Positions 30,115 to 48,201 of a stretch of 64,000 bases of DNA are shown piece by piece. The first letter of the stretch is position 1, and every line of letters starts with the position of its first letter. Under the pieces are notes generated by a model, which made no database searches, was not told the DNA's origin, and was given only the letters and a program-made list of their open reading frames with translations. The DNA lies in the NCBI GenBank assembly GCA_017429985.1, contig JAFRNW010000019.1:13291-77290 (forward strand). Reading direction: 5' to 3'. Made by a program: the position numbers and the translations under genes. Origin of the DNA: Clostridia bacterium (GTDB taxonomy: Bacteria > Bacillota > Clostridia > Christensenellales > CAG-138).

Positions 30115-30159
30115 TGGCGTGCCTGGGAGGATTCGAACCTCTGACCTACAGAGTCGGAG
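30115..30159 (-). other. Displaced 3' half of the original tRNA-Arg(CCG) (attR-like)
   Basis: - strand CTCCGAC-TCTGT-AGGTCAGAGGTTCGAATCCTCCCAGGCACGCCA; followed on - by a terminator-like hairpin at about 30074-30110. Confidence 0.92.
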
Positions 30160-30325
30160 AAGTACAGATAATGATTAGAAAAAAGTTAGTAGCATGGGGA
30201 AAAACGCTTATTTTTGGCGGTTTTTGACAGCTTGGCTATGTCAAAATATATGATAAAGAGTATCGTTATAAAAGGCCTTTTTTAATAGCTCTGTAGTAAA
30301 AATGTAGTATGTTTTCAGCTATAGA
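30115..30325 (+). repeat. About 210-bp direct repeat, copy 1 (tRNA 3' half plus cassette end)
   Basis: Aligns nearly end to end with 37851-38062, including CTGTAGTAAAAATGTAGTATGTTTTCAGCTATAGA. Confidence 0.92.
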
Positions 30326-30570
30326 TATCCTTATAAGGAGTATCAGCAATGCCTATTGTATTTAGCCGCATATTCTTTTTGTCTAATATAGGTTTTCAGA
30401 TATTCTAAAACGGCCTGACATCATATACGATATAATTGCTGGAACTGTGTTTTAATGAGCATAAGGCTTTTCTGTGCATCGTTAGAATTATTTCTGTCAA
30501 ACTAATGAGTTTTCGAGTATAATAATACAATTAAAATGATTTTTTTTCTGATTATTTGAGGTTAAAACTA

Positions 30571-32082
30571 GTGCGCACAAAAAACGTATTGGAGTATTTG
30601 GAAAACAGCGGCGCTCGATTCACAAACAAAACGGCGGTTATAGATGATTCTGGAGCCTGCACTTATCTGGAACTGCGGACTGTCTGTCAAAAGATCGGGA
30701 CGGCTCTGGCATGCAAGATTACTGTTGGTACTCCGGTGGCGGTACTAATGGAAAAAAGCATATCCGTTCTCCAGGCATTCTTTGGAATCGTTTATGCCGG
30801 TGGCTATTATGTTCTGTTAAATCCCGACCTTCCAGAGAAGCGTCTGGGGCAAATCCAGAAAGTCCTGCAGGCTCCCATTGTCATCACGGACGCCGGGCAT
30901 CACAACCTGGCCCGCACCCTGTTTCCCGAGAACGCAATATGTCGAATCGAAGAATTGGCCGACGGGCCGATCCAGGCAGAAGTCTTGCAAAGGATTCGCA
31001 ACCGCATGATCGATACCGACCCGTTGTATGCCAACTTCACCTCCGGCTCAACCGGTATTCCAAAAGGCGTGATGGTCAATCACCGCTCTGTAATCGATTT
31101 TATTGATGTCTTTACGGAACTATTCCGTCTGAATAATACGGATGTTTTCGGCAATCAAGCGCCTTTTGATTTTGATGTTTCCGTCAAAGACATCTATTCG
31201 TCCGTCTATGTGGGCGGAACGCTGGTCATCCTGCCAAAGCGTCTGTTCTCGAATCCGAAAGAGCTGCTGGATTGGCTCAATGACCGCAAGATTACAACCT
31301 TGATCTGGGCCGTCTCCGCCCTTTGCCTTGTCAGCACCTTTCACGGTCTTGACTACCGAACACCTGAAACGGTACGAAATGTGCTGTTCAGCGGCGAGAT
31401 GATACCGGAGAAGCATCTGCGGACATGGCGTGATCATCTGCCCGACGCCCAGTTCGTCAATCTCTACGGCCCGACGGAGATCACCTGCAACTGCACCTAT
31501 TACATTCTGGACAAAAACCTCAATTATACCGAAGGCGTTCCCATTGGACGTCCGTTCCCCAACGAACACGTATTTCTGCTGGATTCAAATGATCAGGAGG
31601 TCAAGGCGAAAGATGTCGTTGGAGAAATATGCGTTCGTGGCACGGCACTTGCACTGGGCTACTGTCGCGCCCCAGAACAAACAGCAGCAGCCTTTACACA
31701 GAATCCTCTGAATATCTGTTATCCGGAGTTGATCTATCGCACTGGCGATTTGGGCAAATACAATGATCTCGGCGAACTCATGTTCTGCGGACGCAAGGAT
31801 TTTCAAATCAAGTATATGGGTCACCGGATCGAGTTGGAGGAAATCGAGCGTGTCATCGGCGCGATGCCAGACGTGGAAAGATGCTGCTGTATATTTGATC
31901 CGCTGAAAAGCAAGTTGTATGGCTTTTATGTCGGACTTGCAGAGCCTAACGAGCTACGCAGACGGCTCCAGCAGGAACTTCCTCTCTATATGGTGCCCGG
32001 GGCTTTGCGCCAGCTGTCGGAGTTGCCTCTCAACAAAAACGGCAAGATCGACCGAAAGAGATTACTGGAACGAAAGGAATAG
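30571..32082 (+). CDS. Stand-alone amino-acid adenylation enzyme (DltA-like)
   Basis: FTSGSTGIPKGV, FDFDVSV, NLYGPTE, YRTGD, GRKDFQIK.MGHRIEL.EIE, NKNGKIDR. GTG 30571 follows GAGG; TTG 30556 is an alternative start. Confidence 0.9.
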   Translation: MRTKNVLEYLENSGARFTNKTAVIDDSGACTYLELRTVCQKIGTALACKITVGTPVAVLMEKSISVLQAFFGIVYAGGYYVLLNPDLPEKRLGQIQKVLQAPIVITDAGHHNLARTLFPENAICRIEELADGPIQAEVLQRIRNRMIDTDPLYANFTSGSTGIPKGVMVNHRSVIDFIDVFTELFRLNNTDVFGNQAPFDFDVSVKDIYSSVYVGGTLVILPKRLFSNPKELLDWLNDRKITTLIWAVSALCLVSTFHGLDYRTPETVRNVLFSGEMIPEKHLRTWRDHLPDAQFVNLYGPTEITCNCTYYILDKNLNYTEGVPIGRPFPNEHVFLLDSNDQEVKAKDVVGEICVRGTALALGYCRAPEQTAAAFTQNPLNICYPELIYRTGDLGKYNDLGELMFCGRKDFQIKYMGHRIELEEIERVIGAMPDVERCCCIFDPLKSKLYGFYVGLAEPNELRRRLQQELPLYMVPGALRQLSELPLNKNGKIDRKRLLERKE

Positions 32083-32085
32083 TTT

Positions 32086-33282
32086 ATGAACGACTCCCAA
32101 CTGAAGGCGGTTCTGGAGTTGGAGAAAACTCCTCTCTATATTTTTGACCTGTCAGAGTTGTCAGACAGGATTTGTTTCCTGAGGAACCATCTGCCGGCAT
32201 CCGTCCTGATCTGCTATGCGGTGAAAGCAAATCCGTTCCTTGCGCAGGAGGTCAGCGGATTGGTGGAACGGCTGGAAATCTGCTCTCCGGGAGAGTATCG
32301 CATCTGTCAGAATCTCGGCCTTTCGCAGGAACAATTCGTAGTATCCGGTGTTTACAAAACACCTTCTCTGATGCACGACATGATAGCTCGGGACGATGCG
32401 ACGGGGCTCTTCACGGTGGAGTCTTTGCAACAGTTTTTCCTTCTTTACGAGGAGGCTAAAAGCGGACACAAACGGATCCCTGTCCTGCTGCGCCTTACCA
32501 GCGGTAATCAATTCGGTTTGGATGAGCCCGATGCGGAAAAGCTGATTGCAGACTACCAGCATGATGTGCACCTGGATATCCGGGGAATCCAATACTTCTC
32601 CGGAACCCAGAAGACTTCGCTGAAGCGACTTGAGCGGGAACTGGAATACCTGGACAGCTTTCTAGAACGGTTGCAGACCTCCTATGGTTACCGTGCTCAG
32701 GAGCTGGAATTTGGGCCCGGATTCCCGGTGTCCTATTTTCAAGGGGAAGAACTGGCGGAGCCAGAGTTTTTTAAGAGCTTTTCCGCGCTGTTGACCGGGA
32801 TGCGTTTCGGAGGACTGATTACGCTGGAGATTGGGCGAAGCATCGCGGCCAGCTGCGGCTACTACTTGACAAGAGTGGTCGATACAAAAATCAACAAGGG
32901 CCGAAACTACGCCATTGTGGATGGGGGCATCCACCAGCTGGTCTACTTTGGTCAGTTTATGGCCATGAAGCGCCCTCACGTGCGTATTCTGTCCCCCTCC
33001 ATCCGCGGAAGCGAGGAGGAATGGAATATATTTGGTTCTCTCTGTACCATCAACGACGTGCTAGTCAAAAGCCTTCCCCTGCCGGGGCTTCATGTCGGGG
33101 ATACGCTCGTGTTTGAGAATACAGGCGCATACTGTATGACCGAGGGAATATCCCTGTTTCTCAGCCGAGACTTACCCGCCGTGGTGCTATTTCAGTGCAA
33201 TGGCACGCCTCTCCTTGTGCGGGGCCATATCTCCACAGCTTTCTTAAATGCACCAGATTATGAAAGGAGTAATAAAAAATGA
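32086..33282 (+). CDS. Fold-type III PLP enzyme (diaminopimelate/ornithine decarboxylase-like)
   Basis: TPLYIFD, YAVKAN (PLP lysine), GPGFP, EIGRSIAA, VDGGIH, GSLCTINDVL, TGAY. Confidence 0.85.
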   Translation: MNDSQLKAVLELEKTPLYIFDLSELSDRICFLRNHLPASVLICYAVKANPFLAQEVSGLVERLEICSPGEYRICQNLGLSQEQFVVSGVYKTPSLMHDMIARDDATGLFTVESLQQFFLLYEEAKSGHKRIPVLLRLTSGNQFGLDEPDAEKLIADYQHDVHLDIRGIQYFSGTQKTSLKRLERELEYLDSFLERLQTSYGYRAQELEFGPGFPVSYFQGEELAEPEFFKSFSALLTGMRFGGLITLEIGRSIAASCGYYLTRVVDTKINKGRNYAIVDGGIHQLVYFGQFMAMKRPHVRILSPSIRGSEEEWNIFGSLCTINDVLVKSLPLPGLHVGDTLVFENTGAYCMTEGISLFLSRDLPAVVLFQCNGTPLLVRGHISTAFLNAPDYERSNKK

Positions 33283-33506
33283 AACAGTTAATTGAGATTC
33301 TGGAGGATGTCAATCCGGGCGTGGATTACAATACTTGCACCGATTTGGTTGACGGCGGTTACCTTAATTCCCTCTCCATCCTCGCTATAGTGGCGGAACT
33401 GGAAGAAGCATTCGACATTGTGATCTCAACAGTAGAGGTAACTCCGAAAAACTTCAACTCCGCCCAGAGTCTTTGGGAAATGGTGCTGCGGCTGAAAGAA
33501 GAATAA
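33279..33506 (+). CDS. Acyl/aminoacyl carrier protein (DltC-like)
   Basis: 75 aa, acidic; GYLNSLSI phosphopantetheine Ser motif; NFNS near the C terminus. Confidence 0.88.
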   Translation: MKQLIEILEDVNPGVDYNTCTDLVDGGYLNSLSILAIVAELEEAFDIVISTVEVTPKNFNSAQSLWEMVLRLKEE

Positions 33507-33510
33507 TACA

Positions 33511-35112
33511 ATGCTCCCGTTGTCTTCCTATTTCTCACTGCTTTACCTAGCAATACTGTTGCCGGGAACCGTGCTGGCTTATACTGTCCTTCCGCAAAAA
33601 TATCGTCGTGCAGTACTCTTGCTGAGCAGTTACGCCGTGTTCTGGCTCGTCAGCGGGAAACTGCTGTGCTATCTTCTATTTTCCACTATCTCGGTTCATC
33701 ATATCGGCTTGTGGTTGGAGAATACCCAACTCGAGGCAAACAGGCTGCTTGAGACTGCGCCGAAAGAAACGCGAAAGGACATTCGGGCACGGACTCAGCA
33801 GAGACGGAAAAAAATAGTAGCATTTGGGATTGCTGTGCAGTTCGGTATTTTGCTGGCGTTGAAATACGGGGCGTTTTTCATCTCCAACTTCAACGAACTT
33901 GCTGACTTAATGAAGGTTACAGTGAAACTACCTGTCCCTTCCGTCATTTTGCCGATTGGCATCTCCTTTTATACCATGCAAGCAGCATCCTACATGCTGG
34001 ATGTGTATCGAGAGAATATCCCTGCAGACCGAAATCTGATGCGTCTCGCTCTTTACATGAGTTTTTTCCCCCAGCTCATGGAAGGGCCGATCTGCCGATA
34101 TTCAGAAACCGCGCAGCAGCTCTGGGACGCTCCGCCTATGCGTTGGAAAAACTTAATGTTAGGCCTCCAACGCATTCTGTGGGGCATCATGAAAAAAATG
34201 GTGGTTGCCGACCGCTTGAATCTGTTAATCACTGAAGCGTTTGACAACTATGTCCACTACGACGGATTCATGATTGCTGCAGCTGTCGTGTGCTACACAG
34301 TTCAACTCTATATGGACTTCTCCGGCACCATGGATCTTGTGCTGGGCAGCGGACAGATATTCGGCATCAAACTGCCGGAAAACTTCCAGCGCCCCTTCTT
34401 TTCACGCACGATTCAGGAGTTTTGGCGTCGCTGGCATATTACGCTTGGTGCATGGTTCCGAGACTACGTTTTTTATCCTATATCACTCAGCGCTCCAATA
34501 AAAAAGCTGCCTCTCCTGCTACAAAAACGGCTGGGAAGAACCTACGGGTTCATTTTTTCCAGTATACCCGCCCTGTTCTGTGTATGGTTATGTAACGGTC
34601 TGTGGCACGGGGCAGGCTGGAACTTTATTTTTTTCGGGATGTACCACTTTGCTTTGATCCTTGTTGAAAATATAATGGAACCCCCTGCTGTCTGGCTGGC
34701 AAAAAGGCTCCATATCAACCGGGACGGCATTCTGTACCGATGTATGCAGATCGTCCGCACCGCCGTACTATTTTGCATCGGCGAACTGTTTTTCAGGGCA
34801 TCTTCCCTGAAAGCGGGGTTTGCCATGTTTAAAAAGATATTTACTGATTTTACACTGGCAAGAGTTAAAGATAACACATTCTTTTCCCATGGTGCAGATA
34901 AGCATGATTTTTTAATCGTTGTCGTGACACTGGCGTTGATTCTGGCGGTCGGGTGCATCCAGGAACGAGGAGTTTCCGTGCGACAGTGGATAGAAAAGAG
35001 AAATCTTGCGGTCCGTCTTTCTCTGTGGTATCTTCTGATTCTTTTTATCGTGATATTCGGCGCATACGGTACCGGATATATTCCGGTTGACCCAATCTAT
35101 GCAGGCTTCTAG
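33511..35112 (+). CDS. MBOAT-family acyltransferase (DltB/AlgI-like)
   Basis: LPIGISFYT, FFPQLMEGPI, YMDFSG, FWRRWHITL, GLWHG; ends PIYAGF. Confidence 0.93.
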   Translation: MLPLSSYFSLLYLAILLPGTVLAYTVLPQKYRRAVLLLSSYAVFWLVSGKLLCYLLFSTISVHHIGLWLENTQLEANRLLETAPKETRKDIRARTQQRRKKIVAFGIAVQFGILLALKYGAFFISNFNELADLMKVTVKLPVPSVILPIGISFYTMQAASYMLDVYRENIPADRNLMRLALYMSFFPQLMEGPICRYSETAQQLWDAPPMRWKNLMLGLQRILWGIMKKMVVADRLNLLITEAFDNYVHYDGFMIAAAVVCYTVQLYMDFSGTMDLVLGSGQIFGIKLPENFQRPFFSRTIQEFWRRWHITLGAWFRDYVFYPISLSAPIKKLPLLLQKRLGRTYGFIFSSIPALFCVWLCNGLWHGAGWNFIFFGMYHFALILVENIMEPPAVWLAKRLHINRDGILYRCMQIVRTAVLFCIGELFFRASSLKAGFAMFKKIFTDFTLARVKDNTFFSHGADKHDFLIVVVTLALILAVGCIQERGVSVRQWIEKRNLAVRLSLWYLLILFIVIFGAYGTGYIPVDPIYAGF

Positions 35113-35125
35113 GAGGAACGGCTTA

Positions 35126-36079
35126 ATGATTTATCTAAAACGAACGGGCTGTGTCATGTTATTCCTGCTGGGGCTGCTGGTAATACTGCTTGCTGCCTCT
35201 GCCATTTTCAAGCCAAAGAACAACATCCCATCGGCAGGGATGGAGGAAACACTTGCAAACGGTATTCTGGGTGAGCCGGAAAACACGATTGATGTTTTGA
35301 TCATTGGTGACAGCGAATCCCGTTGCGCCATATGTCCCATGCAAATTTGGAAAGAAACCGGATTCACCACATATGTGTGTGCGACAGCAGCCCAAAAGCT
35401 TTCTTACAGTTATACCATGCTCGACCGCGCATTTCAGCGACAAAAGCCAAAAATCGTAATTCTTGAGACGCTGGCGATTTTCCGGGAGATGTCATTGGAA
35501 GACGCGGTTAAAGAAATATTATATCATAGGCTTCCTGTTCTCCGCTATCATGATCGATGGAAATGTTTGCATGCCAATGATTTTGGTGGTGCGGTTCTGC
35601 CAGTCTGGACCAATGACAGCAAAGGATATTGGAATACAAAAAAGGTTGATCCCGGTAGTAACGAGCCGTACATGGGTGCCATGGATAACAAATCAAGCGT
35701 CTCACTGCTGAACAGACGTTATGTCCGGGCCATTAAAACACTTTGTGAAAAAAACGGATCCCGACTTCTTCTGTTGAGTACGCCCAGCACCATCAATTGG
35801 AATTATGCTCTGCACAATGGCATTCAGGCAGTAGCTGAGGAACTGGGTATTGAATACATCGACATGAACCTCATGAACGACCGTATCAAAATTGACTGGA
35901 GCAGGGATACTTTCGACAAGGGCGACCATTTGAACCACAGCGGCGCAGTCAAACTTTCCTTGGTACTGTCAGAGTATCTGCAAGAGCAAGGCATTTTCAA
36001 GGATCACCGTGGCGATCAAGCTTATGCAAAGTGGGAGGATATTCTGAAAAACCGCGGGACCGAACCTGAAGAAGAATAA
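35126..36079 (+). CDS. Membrane-anchored SGNH-like acyltransferase (DltD/AlgJ-like)
   Basis: N-terminal TM segment, IGDSE and DKGDHLN motifs; AGGAGG RBS. Confidence 0.75.
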   Translation: MIYLKRTGCVMLFLLGLLVILLAASAIFKPKNNIPSAGMEETLANGILGEPENTIDVLIIGDSESRCAICPMQIWKETGFTTYVCATAAQKLSYSYTMLDRAFQRQKPKIVILETLAIFREMSLEDAVKEILYHRLPVLRYHDRWKCLHANDFGGAVLPVWTNDSKGYWNTKKVDPGSNEPYMGAMDNKSSVSLLNRRYVRAIKTLCEKNGSRLLLLSTPSTINWNYALHNGIQAVAEELGIEYIDMNLMNDRIKIDWSRDTFDKGDHLNHSGAVKLSLVLSEYLQEQGIFKDHRGDQAYAKWEDILKNRGTEPEEE

Positions 36080-36178
36080 TTGTTTTCATAATCCTCCCTG
36101 CTGGTCTTGATAATCTCCGGAGCATGAACGCTCAAATGAGTTCAGAATGCATTTCAAAATGATCGACACAGAAACTAC

Positions 36179-37400
36179 ATGAGCCTGACTATGATTGCGA
36201 GACGAATCATCACCGTTGTCTTGTTACTCATTGTGATGCTTTTTCTGGAACTGAATCAGCATTTTACATGGGGTATGTTTCTGACCGTTCATTTGACCAC
36301 TACGATTTTCATATTGTTCGAAGCGAAACTTCTGCCGGGAATTCCGCAAGGCAGCAGCGTGGACGGGCTATATCCTCCTTACCGCGCTCATTCTTGTCAT
36401 CACGTTCCCTTCCATAATCAGGTCGATGCGATTAACAGAAAAACCTGCAGAGAAACAGGCGCTGTAGCGATGAAGGACGGCAAAGTCAGCGGTGTCATGA
36501 GGGCGGACGGAGCGACGCGGACATCCCGTACTCTGCTCCACCCATGAGAGATCTTTGCTGTAAGGAACCGCAGGACGTGACCGCCTAGGATGGGACCCTA
36601 AAAGCAAATCATTTTACTGCCATGTCCATGCAGATCCGGAAGCTCCCAATCATAGACTCCCTCACGAATATCATAGACAATCACGATTACAGCTGGCTAG
36701 ATTTCAGTGACAACTATATCGCTACGGCATCTAAGGACTCGCTTTACGAAAATGTTAGGAAACCCGCGGGAGAACAGAAGAATCTCCCGTACTGGTTTTC
36801 GTTCACGGCTACTCCCTGCTGTCCGGCCAGCCCTGGTACGCGGATTACAGCGGCGAATGCCTAGCGCGGGACAGCGTCATCGTCGTCAATATAGGATGCC
36901 GTCTGTGCGCATTCAGATTTCTTGCTCTGGACAAACTTGCCGCGGAATCTGAACACTGCACGACCGGAAACCACGATCTTCTGGATTAGATCAAGGCGCT
37001 GGAATGGGTCCGGGACAATATCGCTTCCTTCGGTGGCGATCCTGATAACATCACCGTGGCTTGAGAATCCTCTGGCGCCTCTTCCGTGAGCGTCCTCTGT
37101 ACTTCGTCTCTTGCGGCTGTTCCGCTGGGTCATTCTGGAAAGCTCCATCGTGGCTAGCCGGAAGCCGCCTCATTCCTTCTGCTCCATGGAGGAAGCACTG
37201 CCTTCTTGAAAAGAAGTTCTTCCACGATACCATGCAAAAAACGTATCGGATCTGCGCAGACTGCCCGAAGATTCAATCGCGGGATCCATGGATACGGAAC
37301 ACTACATCACCGTGGACGGCTACGTCCTGCCTGAAACGCCCTGTCAATCCTATCAAAAGGGCATTCATAACGAGGAAGCTATCCTACACGGGTTTCTGTC
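36179..37400 (+). pseudogene. Decayed type-B carboxylesterase
   Basis: Fragments across frames with stops: SKDSLYENVRKP (SEDCLYLNV-like) and [36 protein letters not shown]. Ends are approximate. Confidence 0.75.
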
Positions 37401-37516
37401 GCTTGTCATTTGCGATGGGAAATGCTGATATTGCCGTCAAAAATAGGGCAACAGCGGTGGCTCCGCCGCATTACGCGGATGGTGTGGTGCAGATTCTGGA
37501 GCGTTACTTCCTGTAA
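37400..37516 (+). pseudogene. C-terminal fragment of a Cof-type HAD hydrolase
   Basis: SFAMGNA...K..A..VAP....DGVVQILERYFL. Confidence 0.55.
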
Positions 37517-38062: not shown

Positions 38063-38069
38063 ACATAAG

Positions 38070-40140: not shown

Positions 40141-40237
40141 GATCCGGGACTGCCCCGGACGGGAGATCAAGCCCTGATACAGCGTTCAGATCCGGATCCC
40201 GTTCTTCTTACGGCTTTCCGCTTCAGTCTTTTCCTTG

Positions 40238-40720: not shown

Positions 40721-40731
40721 AGATGCGCACC

Positions 40732-41937
40732 TCACTCCTGCGGTGTCCAGAACACGCTGTTCACATAGTACTCGATCCCGGTGCGCTGGCGGCCGACGAG
40801 AAAGTGCGCATTGATGCGCTTCTGGATCACATTGCAGTTCTCGCGCGTGGTGTTGATAAGGAGCACCAGATACTGTCCTTTTCCGTAGCGGCACATTGCG
40901 TCACCGCGGCGGATCGAACGGCGAATTGCATCCCCCATCCTGCTGACCAGCTGATTCAGGACATCTCCCTCGCGCATGGGATTGCCTTTACTGTCCACAA
41001 TCGTGCACAGCATGATGTATACCGACTGTCCTCCGCGCTCAAGCATGCGTTCGACCATGCGATAGATTCCAAGGAACACCGGGTAGTTGCAAAGGTATCC
41101 GCCTTGCGATCTGTCGTGCGCCCCGGTAAGTTCCGACTGGATCTGATCCAAGACAGCGTGCCGGTACTGCATCTTTTCCCCGAGCCGGTCGAATTGCTCC
41201 ATGAGCCTCTTCGACGGCCTCAGACCCTGCTCGTTGAAATAAAACTGGACCGTGCTGTCATATAGCTTCCGTGCATCTTCCGCGCGTCCAAGTGAAACGA
41301 GTGCTTCCATGGTGATCGTTTCCCAATCCGCGAGAGGATCGATCCGGGCGGCATAAAGGCCAAGGTCCTCCATCTGGAAATAATCCTGACTGACTCGGAG
41401 GAGCTCAGACGCCCGCTCGACAGCGGTGCAGAACAGCTCCTTGTATCTTCTGGCTTCCCGCGCAGCCCAAACGGCGCTCGTATGAAATGTCAGGAACTCT
41501 CCGCTGTAGGCATAGCATGCTTGTAGGTAGAGGGACAGCCGTTCATCCAGATCCTTTGTATTCTCCGCCTCGTGGAACAATTCCTCAAAGGTGAAGGCAT
41601 CCACGACGGTGGGAACGGAATCCGACCAGCGAAACACGCCCTTTGTCTGTTCGATGCAGTTTTCCGCCGGAATCCCGGCTTTCAGAAGTTTCTGCTTGGT
41701 GTTGTAGATGACGCTCTGGAGCGCATGATGGATGTTGTTCATGTCCCTGTCGCTGAACAGCAGCTCTTCCAACTTGTCCCGGGACACGCCCTTTTCCTTT
41801 TCATGGATGAGGATCTGCAGAAGGCTGGTGTTCTGGGAATCGATCGCCTTGGAACCGCCGGCGACAAGTTTCCCGTTCCAACGGAGAGAAAAGCCTCCGA
41901 GCATTCTTACATACAGAACGTTTTCCTGCTCTTTCAC
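40732..41937 (-). CDS. SARP/BTAD-type transcriptional activator with C-terminal degenerate GGDEF-like domain
   Basis: VRMLGGFSL, wHTH, VDAFTFE, YSGEFL, EQGLRPS; IRRGDAMCRYGKGQYLVLL. Confidence 0.8.
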   Translation of the reverse strand: MKEQENVLYVRMLGGFSLRWNGKLVAGGSKAIDSQNTSLLQILIHEKEKGVSRDKLEELLFSDRDMNNIHHALQSVIYNTKQKLLKAGIPAENCIEQTKGVFRWSDSVPTVVDAFTFEELFHEAENTKDLDERLSLYLQACYAYSGEFLTFHTSAVWAAREARRYKELFCTAVERASELLRVSQDYFQMEDLGLYAARIDPLADWETITMEALVSLGRAEDARKLYDSTVQFYFNEQGLRPSKRLMEQFDRLGEKMQYRHAVLDQIQSELTGAHDRSQGGYLCNYPVFLGIYRMVERMLERGGQSVYIMLCTIVDSKGNPMREGDVLNQLVSRMGDAIRRSIRRGDAMCRYGKGQYLVLLINTTRENCNVIQKRINAHFLVGRQRTGIEYYVNSVFWTPQE

Positions 41938-42474
41938 TTGGATCTCCTTCGTCGCGGAGGTTTTCCGCGAAAAAACCCGATTTCATCCGCGAAAACGTCA
42001 AACACGTGCGGATTTTCTGTTCAGTAGTAACAAATCATTCTACCACGTACGGAATCTGTACGCACGTTTTTTATCGAGATAACGGTGTCAAACATCTCAT
42101 ATTCTGACATCCATTTATATGCGTTAACACGTGTTCGTTTCCTTTCGGTTGAGTCTGCTAACAAAAAACGATGAGACGTTCCGTGTTCTTTTTCAATCTC
42201 TTTTCCGCTATTCAGTTTTCAAGCTTTCCACAAAAATCGTTGATGAACCACAAAAAAAGCCCATCGTTCCGACAGGCGCTTCATATCCGCTCCGCGCCAT
42301 CGGTCAAGCTTTGGCACCTTGCCGTGCGGTCAACGAGATTGTCTCTCGCACGCTCTTTATGGCACTACGACTGTAACAGTTTGGATCCTGCGCGTCAAAG
42401 CTTTTCTACGGATCGGATCATATCACCTCATGCTTTACTGAACCGGAAAAGCCAGACCCCTGCCAACACGAGCA

Positions 42475-42503
42475 AAAGCCCCAGGAATATCGTTCCTGGG
42501 GCT
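42475..42503 (-). terminator. Terminator hairpin after the surface-protein gene
   Basis: AAGCCCCAGGAA...TTCCTGGGGCTT. Confidence 0.65.
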
Positions 42504-42549
42504 TCTGCAGACTAGCTGTGGTTCATTGTTCGTCGGAGGTTCCAATTCA

Positions 42550-45500
42550 TCAGAACGCATTCTCAATGGTGAAGAAGTCGTATTCCGGGTGCGCCTCGTC
42601 GTAGGAATCCCTGTCAAGGACCGGGGAATAGGTCGCTACCGCGATCGTTCCCGCTTCGGCGTTCAGGGTAATCATGCGGAAGAAGCCGAGGCCGTTTTCT
42701 ACGTCTGAAGCGTAGTTGTACATGATCGCGTTCGCGCTGCGTCCGTCTTCATAGGCCTTGCTCCAGCGCGCTGCGCCTTCCGCATTGCCAGAGAGGATCA
42801 GGGAAACGTTGCTGTTGACAGCGACGATCTCGGATTCGACCAGTTTGCCGAACGCTGTCAGCGTTCCATGATCGAGCGTGTCTGCCGGATTCTTTTCGAT
42901 GAAGTCATTTACAAGGAGAATCACGGTATATTCCGAATACGCGGCAAGCATGTCGTTTACGTACTGGATCCATGCCTGCTGAGCACTGCGCTCTTCATCT
43001 GTGGCATTCCCGTCGAGCACCTTCTGGCTTCCGATGCCTACCATAAGGACCTGATTGTCGGCAAACGGATGGACCCAGACGCTGCCGTTACTGTTTCTTT
43101 TTGCTGCTTCAAAGATACCGTTGCTGAGATAATCCGTATAATCTGCGTCGGCACCGACTTCGTTGCATCCCGCGATGTTCAGATAGGGAAGTTCGCCGTT
43201 CTTTCTGTTCATCCCGTCCAGCGCATCACGGATCAGCTTCCAGGCGGCTTCGTCCTTGCCGTCGGCAACCGCGTTCCCCGTCCCGATTAGAGCGGATGCT
43301 CCAAGGAATCTGTTCTCTTTCAGATACCGGATCATTGCCTGGTAGGCTTCCGCCTGTTTTCCACCCGCTGTCAGATCAGTATCCGAGGTGAGGATGAAAG
43401 ACATCGAGCCGATCATTCCGAGAGGAACCTCTTCGTCCGCAATGGTCGTGGTGGTTGATTTTTTGGTCGGAGTATCTTTTTTCGTTTCCGCCGTGAATGA
43501 ACCATGGATCGTTACATCCTGCGCCGGCATCGTGAAGGTCTCACTGTCCCATCCGCTGAATGTATACCCCTTCGCGACAGCGTTTTCCGCGATAACGACC
43601 TTGCTGCCGAATTTTCTGGCCGTTGCTTCCGGAAGCTCGGATGCACCGGAAGGAACCTTGCCGGAGTACTCATAGGAAACCGTGTACTGATTGCGGTCGT
43701 AATAGAGGTTCAGGACCAGGGAATCGTCCAGTGCGACCGTTCCGTCGGATATGGACGCTGCTTCATTGTAGCGGAAACCTTCGTAGCTGTTGGCGTCCAC
43801 GCTGATCGCTTTTCCGGTCAGAGCGCTTTCTTCTTTCTTCTCGGCGAGCGTGTATCCGTCTGTGTCCGCATTTTCGAGGTAATGGTTGACCGTGTACAGG
43901 GAGGCCGGAACATGGCTGTTGGTGATCACTGCGCGGTTTGCGCCATCGCTTGCAACGGCCTTTTCATATCCGTCCGCAACTTCCGTTTCATCCGCGCTGT
44001 ACCGGATCAGCTGATCGGCAGCATAGGCGTCCAGACCCGAGAAGGTGTAAGACCATCCGTTTGCTTCGGAAAGGACCGCTGTCCTGCCTTTGACCGGTTT
44101 TCCGTTTGCAAGAAGCTGCACGGAGACGCTGCCCGGACGGATCCCGTCCTTGTCGTCCGCGTCGTTCCAGACTTTCCGGACGGAAAAGCTTGTCGTGTAT
44201 TTCGCGTAGACGTTGTATTCCTTCGCAGTATTCGCATTCGATGTAACTGCGGGGAGTTTATACTCGAATCCCTTGGAAAGGAGTTCCCCTTTCTCGTTGT
44301 ACCAGCCCTTGAACGAGATATCCGCCTTGGATTCTTCTTTCGTCAGGGAAGGCTCATAGCTGTACACGGAGATTCCGGACTTGAACTGCTCCTCGCTGTG
44401 TGCCAGCGTGCCTTTCACATACCAGTTGACCGTAACGGAGGGTTGCCATTTCGCAAGGAAGGTAATGGTCTTCGTGCTCCCGGGCGCCTGATCCGCGCCG
44501 TCATAGGTGAAAGATCGTCCGGCAGTATAGATCGAACCGTCATCGGTGTTGTACCAGTGAACAAACCTGTAGTGACTGACCGGTGTCTTTTTCGACGGAT
44601 CCGAGAACGTATGGGTGAAGCTGGAGGCGGAATCAAGATTGCTCCAGGAACCGGAACCGGTAGAAACGTTGTCGATATAACGGTAGTTCAAATACCAGTT
44701 CTGCGTCACTTCGTATACCGGGGAGATGCTGATGCGGAGATCGCCGTTTTCATCTTCGGTGAACAGTCTTGTCGAACCATCGGTGAAGTAGACCGTTGCT
44801 TCGTTGACACCGCCGGAGGACTTGTTGCAACGGAACGCGATCTTGGAGATCTCGCTGCTGCCGCCGGCCAGCGTGAATGCGTTCAGGAACTTGTAATTCG
44901 CTCCGATCCCGGAAGCTGTCCGGTTCTTGCCGCCCACATAGGAGAAGAATCCGCTGATCAGTTTGGTCTGGTTGGATGCCGTGAACGATACATACTTTGT
45001 CGCAGGAACTGCTTTTCCGCCGACAGCGCTTACGGTTGCGTCATAGATGCCGGTAATCGCAACGACGATGGACCCTTTGCTGAGCGTGTCGTATGCGGCG
45101 GTATAGGTCTTGTCTCCGCTGACGGACACGACGTTCGGCGTGAATTTCGAAAAGACATAGTAGTTTTTGTCGCTTTCAGCAGATTCCCGGACGGGCGTCT
45201 CTCCGCTGTATGCGGGAATGGAACCCTTCGCGGCGTATTCTTCCTTCAGCACTGATCCGTCCCAGTTTGTCCAGGTGATCAGGTACATTTCCGAAAAGAC
45301 CGCGGTGTAGACCTGATCGCTGTCCGCTTCCTTGACCGCGGGAGTCCAGCCTTTGAACTGATATCTGCACTTCGCAGAAGCCGCTTTCTCGGGGACTGCG
45401 CCAGTATACGAGGGAATAATTCCCTCTTCCACTTCTTTTGTCATAAGGACTGTTCCGTCCGCGTTTTTCCAGGTAATGGTATAGAACACGGGAACAAGCT

Positions 45501-46125
45501 TGGTCTCTTCCTCTTCCGCGTCTTTGAACGTTTCTTCCTCTTCGGTTTCGAGAGCTTCGGGCAGAGCTTCTGCGATTTCTTCTTTCACCTCAGAAAGCTC
45601 TTCTGCATTTTTATCGGTATCCGCTCCGGAAGCTTCCGCGGCGGACTCCTCGGCTTTCTCCTCTTTCAGGGCCTCGGAGAGATCGGCAATCTCCTTGTCG
45701 CCAGCCTCTTCGACGGCTTCAGAAGCAGCCTGCTCCTCCTCCTTCTCTTCCCGGATTGAAGCCTCATTGACCTTAACGGAATCCGCTTCTTTGATTTCGG
45801 CGTTTTCCGCTTTCTTTTCTTCGGCAGCTGCCGCGATTTCGCTGGAAGCCGGCTTGCTTTCGGCCCTGTCTGCGACGTCTTCCGCCTTTGCTTCCTCAGC
45901 TGTGCTGGTTTTCTCTTCTGATTCCTGCTTGGCAGGACGGATCTCTTCTTTCATTTCCGAAGACTCAGAAGCTTTTTCCGTCTCCTTGACCGCCGACTTA
46001 TCTGCGATCGGTTCAGACGGCATGTCCGACACATCGGATCCGTCGGCAAGAGCCGTCGGAACGAGCGCCGCAAGCATCATAACAGCGAGTGTCAGGGAAA
46101 GGATTCTCTTCAAAAACGACTTCAT
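42550..46125 (-). CDS. Large secreted/surface protein (acidic spacer, B-repeat/CnaB/MucBP-like modules, degenerate phosphoesterase-like C terminus)
   Basis: Signal peptide; YTITWKNADG repeats; CnaB-like KVWNDADDKDGIRPGSVSVQLLANG; FTMPAQDVTIHGSF; IADEEVPL. Confidence 0.85.
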   Translation of the reverse strand: MKSFLKRILSLTLAVMMLAALVPTALADGSDVSDMPSEPIADKSAVKETEKASESSEMKEEIRPAKQESEEKTSTAEEAKAEDVADRAESKPASSEIAAAAEEKKAENAEIKEADSVKVNEASIREEKEEEQAASEAVEEAGDKEIADLSEALKEEKAEESAAEASGADTDKNAEELSEVKEEIAEALPEALETEEEETFKDAEEEETKLVPVFYTITWKNADGTVLMTKEVEEGIIPSYTGAVPEKAASAKCRYQFKGWTPAVKEADSDQVYTAVFSEMYLITWTNWDGSVLKEEYAAKGSIPAYSGETPVRESAESDKNYYVFSKFTPNVVSVSGDKTYTAAYDTLSKGSIVVAITGIYDATVSAVGGKAVPATKYVSFTASNQTKLISGFFSYVGGKNRTASGIGANYKFLNAFTLAGGSSEISKIAFRCNKSSGGVNEATVYFTDGSTRLFTEDENGDLRISISPVYEVTQNWYLNYRYIDNVSTGSGSWSNLDSASSFTHTFSDPSKKTPVSHYRFVHWYNTDDGSIYTAGRSFTYDGADQAPGSTKTITFLAKWQPSVTVNWYVKGTLAHSEEQFKSGISVYSYEPSLTKEESKADISFKGWYNEKGELLSKGFEYKLPAVTSNANTAKEYNVYAKYTTSFSVRKVWNDADDKDGIRPGSVSVQLLANGKPVKGRTAVLSEANGWSYTFSGLDAYAADQLIRYSADETEVADGYEKAVASDGANRAVITNSHVPASLYTVNHYLENADTDGYTLAEKKEESALTGKAISVDANSYEGFRYNEAASISDGTVALDDSLVLNLYYDRNQYTVSYEYSGKVPSGASELPEATARKFGSKVVIAENAVAKGYTFSGWDSETFTMPAQDVTIHGSFTAETKKDTPTKKSTTTTIADEEVPLGMIGSMSFILTSDTDLTAGGKQAEAYQAMIRYLKENRFLGASALIGTGNAVADGKDEAAWKLIRDALDGMNRKNGELPYLNIAGCNEVGADADYTDYLSNGIFEAAKRNSNGSVWVHPFADNQVLMVGIGSQKVLDGNATDEERSAQQAWIQYVNDMLAAYSEYTVILLVNDFIEKNPADTLDHGTLTAFGKLVESEIVAVNSNVSLILSGNAEGAARWSKAYEDGRSANAIMYNYASDVENGLGFFRMITLNAEAGTIAVATYSPVLDRDSYDEAHPEYDFFTIENAF

Positions 46126-46248
46126 TTGGAACCTCCGGTTTCGGATCCGCCGCAGCAGATCTCTTTTTCATGTCTTTAGTCTAACCGGGGTGCTGTCACT
46201 AAAATAATCAAAAAAAGCAGAATAAAAAGGTAATTTATCAAAAATTTA

Positions 46249-46410
46249 GGATCTTCAACAAAAGTTGTGGAAAGCTTGCCTCGTTGAAGGCAGTGATAGG
46301 TATTTGATCAAGGTAAAGAAGTAGTCGTCATTGCGGTATCCGCAGCCGACACGCTTCGTGACCTTGGTCTTATTATTGAATCCTTCCAGCTTTCCGGTAC
46401 TGATCGGATA
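46249..46410 (-). mobile_element. ISL3-family transposase 3' remnant with right end
   Basis: YPISTGKLEGFNNKTKVTKRVGCGYRNDDYFF; end CCACAACTTTTGTTGAAGATCC. Confidence 0.8.
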
Positions 46411-46651
46411 AACCGTTTTAAGATCCTTGACCTGAAACACGCCTATACACTCGTGTTTGAGTACATTGAAGCTTTTTACAATACCGTCAGAATCCATAGC
46501 CATTGTAATTACATGTCCCCTGATCAGTTCGAAAAGCTTTACCGCAAGCTCACCGTTGCTTAAGGGGATGACCAGGAACCTGTTCTCAGTATTTATTCTC
46601 TATGTGGAAAATCTCTCATTTTAATTTGCGCTAAATCTTGACATAGGACCA
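46411..46651 (+). mobile_element. IS3-family transposase 3' remnant with right inverted repeat
   Basis: Manual translation NRFKILDLKHAYTLVFEYIEAFYNTVRIHSHCNYMSPDQFE; ends ...TCTTGACATAGGACCA. Confidence 0.78.
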
Positions 46652-46798
46652 CACGGATACCCTTCTCGAGATCATCCGTAATCTCTTTCATTCTTTCATG
46701 TTGCTGATCTGCATCTCTGTCTCCTCTTTTTTGGTAAAAGAAAAACGCCTGCAAAGCAGACGTTTAACCAGACAAACTGGAATTTGTCAGTGTGCCGG

Positions 46799-47671
46799 TC
46801 AAAGTGATCTCTGCATACAATACATGGTATGCCCCTTCGGATAATCCTCAAGCACGCCGGTCACTGTCCCATAACCATTCTTTCGGAAAAACCCAACGTT
46901 CCAATCATATGCTTCAAGAAACACGACGTCGGCCCCGTTTTCTTTGGCCTCCCGCTCATACTCGCGGAGCAGCCGGGTACCGATCCCTTGCCCCCGGTAT
47001 GGCTCGTCCACCCAGAGCGCATCGATATCCGTGCCGTTCCATCCGTCTACGCCACCGACAAGACCGGCTATGATCCTGCCGTTCTCATCCGTGACCTTTT
47101 TCTCGATGGAAACGTATTCGTGCCCGCGCGGCGCGAATGCTTCGACGTGTCTGCGCAGTCTGCCGGAGAGGAACTCCGCATCCTCTTTGCCGCCCGGGAC
47201 GATCTCATATTTATTGGTGTTTGAAGGATCGTGTTCAATTGCGGTTTGATCGAGCCTTTTCGTCATGAAATAGTGCTCATGTCCCTTCGGAACACCCGTC
47301 ATCGTGTCATTCACCATATAGCCGTGGTTTTCGTAGAACGATTTTGCCTGAAAATCGAAAGTTCCGACCATGGCGAGATAGCAGTCAAGCTCTTTTGCTC
47401 TCTTCTCAGTCTCCTTGATCAGCGCGGAGGCAATACCCTGACGACGGTATGCTTCCTCTACCCACAGATCGAATATCGACGCTGTCTTCCGTTCATCGAC
47501 TGTCAGAATACATCCGCCGAGAAGACTTCCTTTTTCATCTGTGACTTTATACACGAATTCTTCTTCCTCGGCACCTTCTTCAGGCGGAGCGATGGTATCG
47601 AACACCCGGCCTGCCTGTTCTTCAATGTATTCAGCGTCTTCTTCAGAACAATGCATCATATTGAATGACAT
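46799..47671 (-). CDS. Tandem-domain GNAT acetyltransferase
   Basis: Two GNAT repeats: LWVEEAYRRQGIA and LWVDEPYRGQGIG. Confidence 0.9.
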   Translation of the reverse strand: MSFNMMHCSEEDAEYIEEQAGRVFDTIAPPEEGAEEEEFVYKVTDEKGSLLGGCILTVDERKTASIFDLWVEEAYRRQGIASALIKETEKRAKELDCYLAMVGTFDFQAKSFYENHGYMVNDTMTGVPKGHEHYFMTKRLDQTAIEHDPSNTNKYEIVPGGKEDAEFLSGRLRRHVEAFAPRGHEYVSIEKKVTDENGRIIAGLVGGVDGWNGTDIDALWVDEPYRGQGIGTRLLREYEREAKENGADVVFLEAYDWNVGFFRKNGYGTVTGVLEDYPKGHTMYCMQRSL

Positions 47672-48006
47672 TTCATTTCCTCCTCAAATCCCGATTAGCT
47701 GAGATCATTATCCCAAAGAAGGAATGTCATCGCAACCGCGGGAAGTCAATGTTTTCAATGACTTTATCGGATGAATTTTCATTCGGAATCATTGTATATA
47801 TGAGGGAGGAGACAACCGGGAAAAAGACGATAAATACCTGTCAAAAAAACATGATTAAAATAAAAATGTAGTAAAATGTAGTAAATCTGAAAAAACAGCT
47901 TAGAAAATGGTCGTTGAAAATGTATAAAAGCACGGTTTATGCATTTAGAATGGAAGGCTGATGCTGATCCGAGTTGTACCCCCATCAATAACGGAAGCGA
48001 AAAAAT

Positions 48007-48042
48007 AAAAGTCCCGAAAACGTTGATTTTTCGGGACTTTTT
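48007..48042 (-). terminator. Terminator after tRNA-Arg
   Basis: AAAAGTCCCGAAAA...TTTTCGGGACTTTT. Confidence 0.75.
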
Positions 48043-48119
48043 TGGCGTGCCTGGGAGGATTCGAACCTCTGCCCTTTGGAGTCGGAGTCCAACGCTCTTT
48101 CCAGCTGAGCTACAGGCAC
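48043..48119 (-). tRNA. tRNA-Arg(CCG), intact, 77 nt
   Basis: GTGCCTGTAGCTCAGCTGGAAAGAGCGTTGGA-CTCCGAC-TCCAAAGGGCAGAGGTTCGAATCCTCCCAGGCACGCCA forms a cloverleaf with encoded CCA. Confidence 0.95.
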
Positions 48120-48162
48120 ACAATAAAGTTTATGCATTTTTCAAGAACCATAGACCGTCAGC

Positions 48163-48201
48163 GTCGGAGTCTGTCACTCTATCCAACTGAGCTACAGGCA
48201 C
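48163..48201 (-). pseudogene. Orphan 5' half of the original tRNA-Arg(CCG) (attL-like)
   Basis: GTGCCTGTAGCTCAGTTGGATAGAGTGACAGA-CTCCGAC; its ACAGA pairs with TCTGT of the 3' half at 30115-30159. Confidence 0.92.

Follow-up and report, generated by a model that had tools for sequence, protein, structure and literature searches.

Integrons have an IntI-type integrase beside the array, attI and attC sites and a common promoter, and a sublocation scheme for integration into tRNA genes (tDNA) was reportedly set out by Williams in 2002. CIMEs (cis-mobilizable elements) and their tandem accretion with ICEs and IMEs are described, in the excerpted text of PMC5704250, for the ICESt1/ICESt3-related elements of Streptococcus thermophilus and the tRNA-Lys elements of S. 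agalactiae; the primary papers that it cites for CIME accretion are Pavlovic 2004 and Bellanger 2011. For tDNA islands, an excerpt of PMC4383910 describes the attP as containing a piece of the tDNA by which the gene is restored, and says that Islander demands an integrase in each member of an array, so that units like those described below would be filtered out.

Here we describe an 18-kb insert, located at 30160-48162 of the window (the whole stretch of 64,000 nucleotides that was analysed). We consider it likely that this insert is a composite of two non-autonomous, integrase-less CIME-type units, which lie in the anticodon loop of a host tRNA-Arg(CCG) adjacent to radA.

Anatomy of the two-unit insert

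ARAGORN predicted a single tRNA-Arg(CCG), located at 48043-48119 on the minus strand. The anticodon-loop 7-mer GTCGGAG was found at 30153, 37889, 48081 and 48163, the same positions as in a preliminary description of this locus. By itself the 7-mer is not unusual in the window (20 matches versus 12.6 expected; 4 of 100 shuffles reached 20). The copies at 30153, 37889 and 48081 terminate 45-nt copies of a tRNA 3′ half (86 nt including the terminator), while the copy at 48163 starts a copy of a tRNA 5′ half. Direct tRNA-gene repeats ending in the anticodon loop bound the island, as in tDNA islands. The distances from core to core are 7736 and 10192 bp; the first had been reported correctly, whereas the 10274 bp given for the second unit run to the outer core at 48163.

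When the ends of the two units were compared, the left ends (30179-30325 and 37916-38062) matched at 92% over 147 nt and at 90% over 165 nt, in line with the common left end of about 165 bp that had been noted. The right ends, also noted as homologous, matched at 86% in each of two aligned segments (37658-37699 with 47848-47889, and 37810-37895 with 48002-48087). Both left arms lose similarity at one shared point, 16 nt past the doublet described next; if each arm had been cut by a deletion of its own, such a coincidence would be unexpected, which is a point against a deletion model. The heptamer TGTAGTA occurs 10 times in the window (1.33 expected; none of 100 shuffles reached 10), and eight of these copies form four same-strand doublets, at 30292/30303, 37677/37687, 38029/38040 and 47867/47877. 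The same-orientation doublet claimed for each unit end was thus recovered in all four places, and among the 95 copies of TGTAGTA in the 2.13-Mb assembly no other doublets are found. From a core, these direct repeats lie at a distance of 139 bp on its right side and of about 200 bp on its left. All four outer doublets are perfect though the surrounding sequence has diverged, which fits continued selection for integrase binding and is likewise a point against a deletion model.

The left boundary of the insert is core copy 1 (30153-30159, plus strand). It is preceded by an orphan tRNA-Arg(CCG) 3′ half (30115-30152, minus strand) and by a hairpin terminator 3′ of this displaced host half (30074-30114, minus strand), which was read from the sequence and is unlike the terminators of both right arms. 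The left arm of unit 1 (30160-30325, plus strand) carries its doublet at 30292-30309, 139 bp from the core. Cargo 1 is a Dlt-like operon (30556-36079, plus strand) for an adenylation enzyme, a PLP decarboxylase, a carrier protein, a DltB-like MBOAT protein and a 330-aa unknown protein. It is followed by the right arm (37658-37850, plus strand) with a doublet at 37677-37693, a degenerate inner repeat and a terminator at 37810-37850. The hybrid att junction of units 1 and 2 (37851-37895, minus strand) is made up of core copy 2 and a tRNA 3′ half whose stem, CAAGA, is of a third type. The stem of this half is that of the functional tRNA in the related genome G028, and the match of this stretch to G028 is 94%.

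Unit 2 starts with a left arm (37896-38062, plus strand; doublet at 38029-38046) and a 336-aa ORF with weak RCC1-repeat matches (38070-39080, minus strand), which occupies the position of the integrase in relatives; the G+C content of the 38001-39000 bin around it is 38.5%. Further along we found a NUP-family gene in two overlapping frames, likely a frameshifted pseudogene (39092-40478, plus strand), and, all on the minus strand, a BTAD/winged-helix regulator with a weak GGDEF match (40732-41937), a 1191-aa surface protein with Cna_B and Listeria-Bacteroides repeat domains (42550-46125), an 82-aa ISL3 transposase fragment of which only the last 34 profile positions were matched (46255-46503) and a double GNAT acetyltransferase (46799-47671). 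The right arm (47848-48042, plus strand) holds a doublet at 47867-47883 and a terminator at 48007-48041.

The right arm is adjoined by the intact, insert-borne tRNA-Arg(CCG) with the stem TTGGA/TCCAA, which includes core copy 3 at 48081-48087. On the element side of the outer junction lie a spacer and an imperfect copy, about 18 nt long, of the variable-loop/anticodon-stem region of the tRNA, which we call the mimic (48120-48162, minus strand). The outer core (48163-48169, plus strand) forms the right boundary and is followed by the orphan host 5′ half of tRNA-Arg(CCG) (48170-48201, minus strand; stem strand TCTGT on the plus strand). A sigma-70-like site 5′ of this half (48299-48327, minus strand), predicted by consensus match only, is the sole promoter-like site upstream of the tRNA in a scan of 47700-48400, the other site (47707-47735) being downstream. 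The host gene radA/sms (48315-49652, minus strand) is syntenic with tRNA-Arg(CCG) in relatives and adjoins it in seven of them.

Missing recombinase and the element family of relatives

The 20 ORFs scanned with Pfam contained no integrase, relaxase, Rep or phage family, as the preliminary description had stated without mentioning the ISL3 fragment. In a six-frame search of the genome with PF00589, all six matches were located on other contigs and none on this contig. Likewise, six-frame searches for relaxase, coupling protein and resolvase (PF03432, PF02534 and PF00239) gave no match on this contig, and tblastn with three integrases of the family described below gave no island match better than E 0.19. 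None of the ICE hallmarks (integrase, relaxase, coupling protein and type IV secretion genes) was present in 30160-48162, and no homology was found between the cargo and the elements of relatives that were compared with it. Since neither unit contains a remnant of an integrase or a conjugation gene, deletion descent from a conjugative element is something that we infer only.

Related genera have this arm geometry at the corresponding radA-linked tRNA; the left arms align over four genera and the right arms over five, with the doublets in identical columns. The arm repeat word varies by element and is TGTAGTA, TGTGGTA or TGCAGTC. Tyrosine integrases of 388 and 385 aa, which share 50% identity, adjoin an arm in G010 and G028, and the integrases of two other Clostridia assemblies (L069 and G012:C86) use TGTAGTA arm sites. 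These data support the presence, in related genomes, of an integrase family whose arm repeats co-vary with the integrase. The integrase adjoins the left arm in G010, G012 and L069 and the right arm in G028, so this family of integrase elements is not uniform. In G010, which holds the only element whose genes were scanned widely, a 47.5-kb unit (42764-90224) encodes a relaxase, a T4 coupling protein, a VirB4-like ATPase and an NlpC/P60 protein. A 12.8-kb unit in the same genome (29947-42763) gave no PF00589 match and has a two-component system and ABC-2 permeases among its cargo; G010 also contains an integrase pseudogene, which adjoins a truncated left arm. In the metagenome contig L198, only the last 55 integrase codons are left next to a TGTAGTA left arm.

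The cores and arms of our two units align with those that bound integrase elements in G010, G012 and G028, as expected for the attL and attR of a CIME. Based on the integrase-adjoining arms of relatives, the element with conjugation genes and the integrase-less unit of G010, and the truncated integrase of L198, the units are best filed as CIME-type elements stacked by accretion, and not as an integron-like system. The earlier view of lambda-type att boundaries, with a 7-bp anticodon-loop core, direct-repeat arm sites and recombinase-less units stacked at one tRNA, was borne out. It had been added that the units would be deletion relics if the same ends in relatives always enclosed a full integrase-bearing element; this holds in part, as the ends of relatives bound integrase elements, of which that of G010 has conjugation genes, and L198 represents a truncated-integrase intermediate.

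A wider reading is that, in this family of gut Clostridia, the radA-linked tRNA-Arg(CCG) serves as a shared docking site for an undescribed element lineage that does not repair the tRNA it splits but puts in its place a complete copy of its own, under the control of the host promoter. Integrase-less units with intact arm sites would then be maintained, exchangeable cargo modules that incoming conjugative elements collect and move in cis or in trans, amounting to a real gene-capture platform on lambda-type machinery. Each insertion would leave another orphaned 5′ half behind, so that the history of insertions could be read from the pile of such halves. We regard this reading as tentative and rather doubtful.

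It is unlikely, in our judgement, that the units belong to a living family of att-flanked cargo cassettes which never had an integrase, are moved in trans and accumulate as an integron-like capture platform, as the preliminary description had proposed. The perfect doublets, unique in the genome, would suit such a family, and TGTAGTA-arm integrases do exist in L069 and G012:C86. The two left arms are mutually closest and end on the same base, which suggests that an integrase-less left end was propagated as such, and G010 has further integrase-less, cargo-only content between att junctions. However, no TGTAGTA-arm integrase was found in this 98%-complete assembly, where the only homologue of the family integrase (40% identity, contig C6) is located at a tRNA-Met and has a different repeat word. 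Of the claim that an integrase is supplied in trans, the supported part is the family with co-varying arm repeats in related genomes. Moreover, these particular left arms are carried by only two units: a comparison with 60 relatives found none beyond the tRNA part, and they were likewise absent from all 37 metagenome stretches that hold their doublet. Of the inner right-arm repeats seen in G008, G012 and G010, unit 1 has degenerate versions and unit 2 has none. The split NUP gene and the ISL3 fragment are signs of cargo decay, and the truncated-integrase intermediate L198 is known in the element family. At 7.7 and 10.2 kb, the units are multi-gene blocks and not single promoterless cassettes; their cargo comprises a Dlt-like operon for surface modification, an adhesin, regulators and an acetyltransferase. 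There is no tyrosine recombinase on the contig, and the junctions are tRNA-derived cores with arm repeats; an integron-like platform is not supported.

A replacement tRNA gene and orphaned host halves

The fourth core, at 48163, had been counted as a core of the array. Judging from the sequence, it belongs to the orphan host 5′ half, and the intact tRNA at 48043-48119, which had been missed as part of the insert, is element-borne. When eight combinations of halves were joined in silico, an anticodon stem with 5/5 Watson-Crick pairs was obtained only for 30115+48170, i.e. the two orphan halves (30115-30152 and 48170-48201), and for 48043+48088. The outer junction (host 5′ half and mimic) gave no gene with ARAGORN and 3/5 stem pairs, and a whole tRNA gene lies 43 nt inward of it. 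An island-carried tDNA fragment that restores the split gene was not seen here, nor in G028, for which the congener G143 provides the empty site. In G143 the tRNA is single and uninterrupted: its 3′ side, together with the left flank, corresponds to the distal fragment of G028, and its 5′ side, together with the right flank, to the outer 5′ half of G028; the G028 tRNA between these two fragments is of another stem type. Within a genus the outermost 5′ half is constant and the inner ones vary, as seen in g29 (G028, G114 and G130 versus the single G143), g9 (G008 versus G079), g3 (G002 versus G103) and g30. Stacked orphan 5′ halves were present in 19 of the 121 genomes of the family.

These data bear on the reading as a canonical tDNA island, in which 48043-48119 is the host gene restored by the 3′ half of unit 2 and 48170-48201 is an old native pseudo-tRNA. 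Restoration by a tDNA fragment is indeed the rule for tDNA islands in the excerpt of PMC4383910, the appearance of the inner junction (37851-37895) is precisely that of a canonical hybrid att site, and the numbers of 5′ and 3′ halves are not one to one in G000 or G010. Yet the distal 3′ half, which pairs perfectly with the outer 5′ half, forms only 2/5 Watson-Crick pairs with the 5′ half of the intact tRNA, and the empty site of G143 is matched in G028 by the outer 5′ and distal 3′ halves combined and not by the intact tRNA. The constant outermost half and the variable island-adjacent tRNA in four genera argue against it as well, as does the order of terminator, whole tRNA, spacer, mimic and core joined directly to the left arm and integrase in G012:C86. 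We therefore consider a canonical island very improbable.

There are three 3′ halves and two 5′ halves at this locus, and G010 is also unbalanced (four versus three), so that a simple model needs an extra event, either the loss of an orphan unit or composite transfer. In addition, the distal 3′ half (30115-30152) and both element-borne 3′ halves have one and the same T arm, whereas two other runs show the 5′ half on the radA side linked to 17 letters from a different T arm. The distal half may therefore derive from an older element and not from the original host.

Bovine and goat gut runs of other studies yielded contigs that contain both units, with no more than five differences in any piece, a sign of stability. 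The Logan contigs of four runs bridge no arm repeat and stop at 30143/30296, 37874/38033 and 48066, so that it is the deposited assembly alone that places the units side by side. Even so, an assembly artefact, with repeated arms misjoined and the units not truly adjacent or in another order, is scarcely credible, as the three 3′ halves and their adjoining sequences differ from each other, so that at the scale of read pairs no two junctions are alike. Moreover, runs from three other studies contain the same pieces, broken at the same points, and a similar array is present in the complete genome of a related genus (G010).

In the preferred reading, a composite of two CIME-type units, both units would bear att arms of a tyrosine-integrase element family that targets tRNA-Arg(CCG) across the bacterial family. 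The attP would consist of a right arm with direct-repeat integrase sites, a terminator, a complete tRNA-Arg(CCG), a short spacer, the mimic of the anticodon-stem side (about 18 nt), the 7-bp core and a left arm with the doublet 139 bp from the core. Crossover in the 7-bp loop would split the host gene and orphan its 5′ half (48170-48201) and its 3′ half (30115-30152) at opposite ends of the insert. The tRNA of the element would take over the role of the host tRNA; its transcription would probably start at the host promoter and run through the orphan half. At the inner junction, 37851-37895 and the left arm of unit 2 would form a hybrid att produced by accretion of the units. Either the units inserted successively and an orphan unit of 82 nt disappeared afterwards, or both arrived together as one composite circle. 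Their integrase may have been lost, or may never have been present. They are presumably immobile cargo in this genome now, and for any movement they would depend on a TGTAGTA-specific integrase brought by an incoming element.

Implications and comparison with known systems

The units have the look of pared-down relatives of conjugative elements which interrupt a host tRNA gene and supply a complete spare copy. Full-text searches of open-access papers gave no description of this replacement-tRNA design. The functional tRNA would be foreign and the host gene would persist only as two orphan halves, a design that alters how island borders and tRNA gene sets are to be read in these genomes. Past insertions can be counted, even in draft assemblies, from the row of orphan 5′ halves, which serves as a simple marker at the sequence level. 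In this ruminant-gut lineage, the integrase-less units carry surface-modification and adhesin genes. As standard island finders require an integrase per unit, according to the excerpt of PMC4383910, the share of integrase-less tRNA islands in the accessory genomes of gut bacteria is undercounted.

Compared with CIMEs as portrayed in the excerpts of PMC5704250, the units are alike in keeping attL and attR without integration or transfer genes, in stacking at the 3′ side of the target gene with a chimeric att between them, and in having relatives with full elements of a matching integrase family at the same site; by analogy, transfer as one composite would be possible. They differ in that no ICE-gene remnant marks their descent, that this genome has no helper and mobilisation is putative, and that the tRNA-Arg(CCG) element family replaces its target with an entire gene, rather than using a fragment to restore it.

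With tDNA islands of the Islander/TIGER class, which belong to tyrosine integrases and have an anticodon-centred attP, again as far as the excerpts describe them, the locus shares the 7-bp anticodon-loop crossover, the displaced 3′ tDNA fragments at island ends, arm-type direct repeats on both sides and tandem arrays. In contrast to these islands, the units have no integrase gene, the attP holds a whole tRNA gene and a short core-side mimic, and the host gene stays broken, with a 5′ fragment displaced besides the 3′ fragment.

The likeness to integrons lies in recombinase-less cargo that is stacked at one site by site-specific recombination. Unlike in integrons, there is no adjoining IntI-type integrase, no evident attI or attC site and no common promoter; the units are multi-gene and have lambda-type arm sites, and the recombinase family of relatives is a classical element-borne integrase.

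Cores, arms and a split tRNA-Arg(CCG) gene

The window holds a single tRNA gene, tRNA-Arg(CCG) at 48043-48119 on the minus strand, and the 7-mer GTCGGAG corresponds to its anticodon loop as read on the plus strand. By itself the 7-mer is unremarkable, since its count in the window (20 observed, 12.6 expected) was reached in four of 100 shuffles. Nevertheless, the four copies singled out as cores in the preliminary description were confirmed: those at 30153, 37889 and 48081 each terminate a 45-nt copy of the tRNA 3′ half, and the one at 48163 opens a second copy of the 5′ half (repeat family D4, 76% over 58 nt). From two of the three 3′-half copies a similar hairpin terminator continues (repeat family D1). 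The first three cores delimit two blocks, units 1 and 2. As had been described, these share a left end (90-92% alike over 147-165 nt) and a homologous right end (two blocks, 86% alike), and each arm contains a same-strand TGTAGTA doublet. TGTAGTA occurs 10 times in the window against 1.33 expected, a count reached in none of 100 shuffles, and eight of these copies make up the four doublets. In the whole 2.13-Mb assembly of this genome (G000) there are 95 copies, and the doublets are those of the four arms only. Of the inner right-arm repeats present in the related genomes G008, G012 and G010, unit 1 has degenerate versions and unit 2 none.

In the outer 5′ half (48170-48201) the stem strand is TCTGT, the perfect complement of ACAGA in the far 3′ half (30115-30152), and the intact tRNA has its own perfect pairing, TTGGA/TCCAA. 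The middle 3′ half (37851-37888) carries a third stem strand, CAAGA, that is without a partner in the window. Among eight in-silico combinations of halves, five out of five Watson-Crick pairs were obtained only for 30115 with 48170 and for 48043 with 48088. When the piece adjoining the outer 5′ half (48125-48162) was joined to this 5′ half in silico, no tRNA was formed. Based on the stem pairing, 30160-48162 reads as a single insert within a split tRNA gene, the host halves of which would now lie 18 kb apart, with the intact tRNA inside the insert. That the outer 5′ half matches the far 3′ half, and not that of the intact tRNA, had been overlooked in the preliminary description.

The same site in related genomes

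The gene to the right of the island is radA, which was also found beside tRNA-Arg(CCG) at loci of seven relatives, with 65-78% protein identity (five genomes searched). A search for the empty site via the left-flank CmpB-like gene (28061-28993) gave no synteny usable over this distance, as homologues were on other contigs in three of five relatives. In many genomes of the family, extra units consisting of a core and a 5′ half lie upstream of the functional tRNA, preceded by a spacer and an imperfect copy of about 18 nt of the variable-loop/anticodon-stem region (mimic). The 5′-half pattern had matches in 70 of 121 genomes, 19 of which have two or three halves 71-92 bp apart on one contig; the 3′-half pattern had matches in 74 of the 121, seven of them with two to four copies. 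G028 resembles G000 in that its outer 5′ half finds its partner in the distal 3′ half, the functional tRNA being of another stem type. In G002, the second 3′ half, located on another contig, likewise suits the outer halves rather than the functional tRNA.

In G143, which belongs to the same genus as G028, the single tRNA is uninterrupted. On its 3′ side and in the left flank it matches the distal fragment of G028 (80% over 161 nt, up to the core), and on its 5′ side and in the right flank the outer half of G028 (88% over 89 nt, from the core onwards). Within this genus (g29), the outer stem strand is the same in G028, G114 and G130 and equals that of the sole half of G143, while the inner tRNAs are of three types. 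The outer half is likewise constant in genera g9 (G008 and G079) and g3 (G002 and G103), and in g30 one outer type is common to three of four stacked genomes. Together, the stem pairing, the empty site of G143 and the constancy within genera indicate that the outermost 5′ half belongs to the host and that the island-adjacent tRNA is foreign. In G114 and G130 the mimic resembles the tRNA of the element, not that of the host, suggesting that it comes with the element. A promoter scan of 47700-48400 in G000 gave one promoter-like site upstream of the tRNA, which is located upstream of the orphan half, and another hit downstream; a terminator follows the intact tRNA. From this arrangement we infer that transcription of the foreign tRNA would start at the host promoter and pass through the orphan half.

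A query of right arm, core and left arm had matches in 35 of the 61 genomes searched, a set that included no congener of G000. Outside G000 the matches essentially comprised the terminator and the tRNA 3′ half, and many stopped exactly at the core; one short match, in G013, covers the doublet. In this search of the ends, which had been proposed earlier, the left arm itself had no match outside G000 in the 61 genomes; the arm design, however, is common to other genera. In the one-contig genome G010, the core is followed by a left arm, whose TGTGGTA doublet lies 139 bp from the core, and by the stop codon of a 388-aa tyrosine integrase. Contig C86 of G012 shows a terminator, a whole tRNA, a spacer, a short stem mimic, a core, a left arm with TGTAGTA and an integrase. 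In G028, a 385-aa integrase that is 50% identical to that of G010 abuts a right arm, and the repeat word is TGCAGTC. The doublets occupy identical alignment columns in all genera and the word varies with the element; a changing word at a constant position would be the behaviour expected of integrase arm sites. Integrases with TGTAGTA doublets, the search for which in relatives had been proposed, exist in G012 and on contig L069.

In the genome collection, a doublet scan returned at least 117 stretches; most among the matches listed were chance occurrences in unrelated phyla, and of all those listed only six lay 204-363 nt from a tRNA-Arg(CCG) core, each of them a right arm. A metagenome scan for the left-arm doublet gave 37 stretches, none with a G000-type left arm. 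A sister lineage with TGTAGTA-type arms targets tRNA-Arg(CCT) with the core TTAGGAG (L051, on G013:C15 at about 7454-7700, L069 and L198), and its left arm has an extra inverted pair of the repeat. In many drafts (G004, G006, G009, G063, G066, G070, G071, G073, G094, G105, G114 and others) the tRNA-Arg(CCG) match is within about 500 nt of a contig end, which suggests that the site breaks assemblies since it is repeated or variable in the sampled populations. The integrase-bearing element of G028 (L045, on G028:C4) encodes at 14940-17645 two SMODS-domain proteins, one with an AGS-C sensor domain, which look like CBASS-type defence cargo.

Integrase-less units and their cargo

The preliminary description saw no integrase, relaxase, Rep or phage gene in either unit, and this was borne out. 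None of the 20 island ORFs scanned matched integrase, resolvase, relaxase, Rep or phage families, and tblastn with three integrases of the family against the island gave a best E value of 0.19. All six matches of a six-frame PF00589 search of the G000 genome were on contigs other than that of the island, as were a coupling protein, two resolvases and a sub-threshold relaxase match. A 336-aa ORF at the integrase position was rejected as an integrase, having weak RCC1-repeat matches and no NCBIfam hits. An integrase with TGTAGTA sites, which was to be looked for in this genome, was absent from the 98%-complete assembly. The sole homologue of the integrase family is encoded on contig C6 and was rejected as a resident helper, being 40% identical, located at tRNA-Met and associated with another repeat word. 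It belongs to a second integrative element (C6:10827-12594), which also includes a small DNA-binding ORF; some 75 nt downstream from its tRNA there is a TTGTACCCCA doublet. Since a coupling-protein gene lies on a separate 6.9-kb contig (C18), the assembly may hold a resident conjugative element in pieces, on several small contigs.

In G010, which has four 3′ halves with left or right arms at each junction, the 47.5-kb unit whose integrase is intact (42764-90224) carries genes for a MobA/VirD2 relaxase, a type IV coupling protein and a VirB4-like ATPase, as well as for an NlpC/P60 hydrolase and a type I methylase. This is the gene set of an integrative conjugative element. The unit 29947-42763 (12.8 kb) of the same genome had no PF00589 match; its cargo comprises a two-component system and two ABC-2 permeases along with a DUF347 and a NAGPA-domain protein. 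Also in G010, an integrase pseudogene (about 10.8-11.6 kb) adjoins a truncated left arm, which is 99% identical to the intact-integrase one. On the metagenome contig L198, a tRNA-Arg(CCT) 3′ half and a core lead into a left arm that has a TGTAGTA doublet; of the integrase, only the last 55 codons remain before unrelated sequence begins. L069 has the same arm with at least the last 139 integrase codons, up to the contig end. These loci indicate that the element family yields integrase-less units, at least some of them via deletion.

G+C per kilobase is 38-54% across 30001-48000 compared to 51-60% elsewhere in the window. Unit 1 contains a Dlt-like operon (30556-36079) with genes for an adenylation enzyme and a PLP decarboxylase, for a carrier protein and a DltB-like MBOAT protein, and for an unknown 330-aa protein. 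The operon resembles a module for aminoacylation of a surface polymer in which the decarboxylase is an unusual component. The DltA-like adenylation enzyme and the decarboxylase resemble the exosortase-A-associated ligase/decarboxylase pair (TIGR03098/TIGR03099, below cut-off) and are combined here with DltC-like and DltB-like proteins. Besides an ISL3 transposase fragment and a NUP-family gene that is split over two frames, unit 2 has genes for the 336-aa protein, a BTAD regulator, a Cna_B surface protein of 1191 aa (42550-46125) and a double GNAT protein. When all 21 cassette ORFs were compared by tblastn with every fetched relative locus, weak AMP-binding matches were the only result. Next to the island, a 21-nt imperfect inverted repeat (29983-30030) separates the orphan 3′ half from the divergent HTH-XRE/DUF6442 genes. 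At exactly this place, contigs from several sequencing runs branch or differ in letters (loose ends at 29984 and 30028 in X1, X9 and X13), and it may be a variable spot, an invertible spot or an operator.

Origin of the array and comparison with known tRNA gene islands

G000 has two 5′ halves versus three 3′ halves, while a simple model predicts equal numbers; in G010 the 3′ and 5′ halves are likewise imbalanced, four versus three. By one route, unit 1 would have entered the host tRNA and unit 2 the tRNA of unit 1, with the later loss of one 82-nt orphan unit. By a second route, both units would have left a donor as a single circle, via the leftmost core and an inner orphan core, and inserted together; as modelled, this would yield exactly the observed structure without a further event. 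The two element-borne 3′ halves have exactly the T arm of the distal one, and in front of the radA-side 5′ half runs X5 and X9 have 17 letters of another tRNA T arm. The distal 3′ half may therefore stem from a still older element, and the state at the outer core differs in other populations.

In contigs of a bovine and a goat gut run from other studies, unit 1 is present together with the first half of unit 2, and no piece has more than five differences; the two units therefore travel with the lineage across hosts. These Logan contigs break at every arm repeat, so that they neither confirm the unit order nor reveal rare excision, and the lack of a joint at any att core among them is no evidence either way. 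With sides of 22-26 letters, the short joints at 30158>30294, 37697>37810, 47887>48001 and 48115>48177 may derive from other organisms. Within the array, it is only the Cna_B gene that is covered little or not at all by contigs of the bovine and goat runs. In X9 and X5 this concerns 43034-46303, and X5 has a joint 42601>46658 with a 28-letter side; cover and joint were too weak to call a deletion variant. The gene may be strain-variable, contig cover being too weak to say.

The idea of an integron-like gene-capture platform fails on every defining feature of an integron. That an external integrase could move such units is a weaker claim, and a rather unlikely one. Judged from sequence comparison, the pair is probably best read as non-autonomous cis-mobilizable elements (CIMEs) stacked by site-specific accretion, and the units as members of a tRNA-Arg-specific family that would replace, and not restore, its target gene. 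Integration followed by decay to a CIME and accretion, as well as transfer of whole composites, is described in a review (PMC5704250). For whole-tRNA replacement with stacked orphan 5′ halves we found no description in open-access full text. According to the Islander work (PMC4383910), the tDNA fragment of attP usually restores the split gene, and each member of an array needs its own integrase. The G000 units differ from such Islander-type tDNA islands on both points, as the gene is not restored by a fragment and the units have no integrase. Measured against this rule as stated there, whole-tRNA replacement combined with integrase-less units would be a departure from it, and the array hence does not appear to be a plain member of that class.
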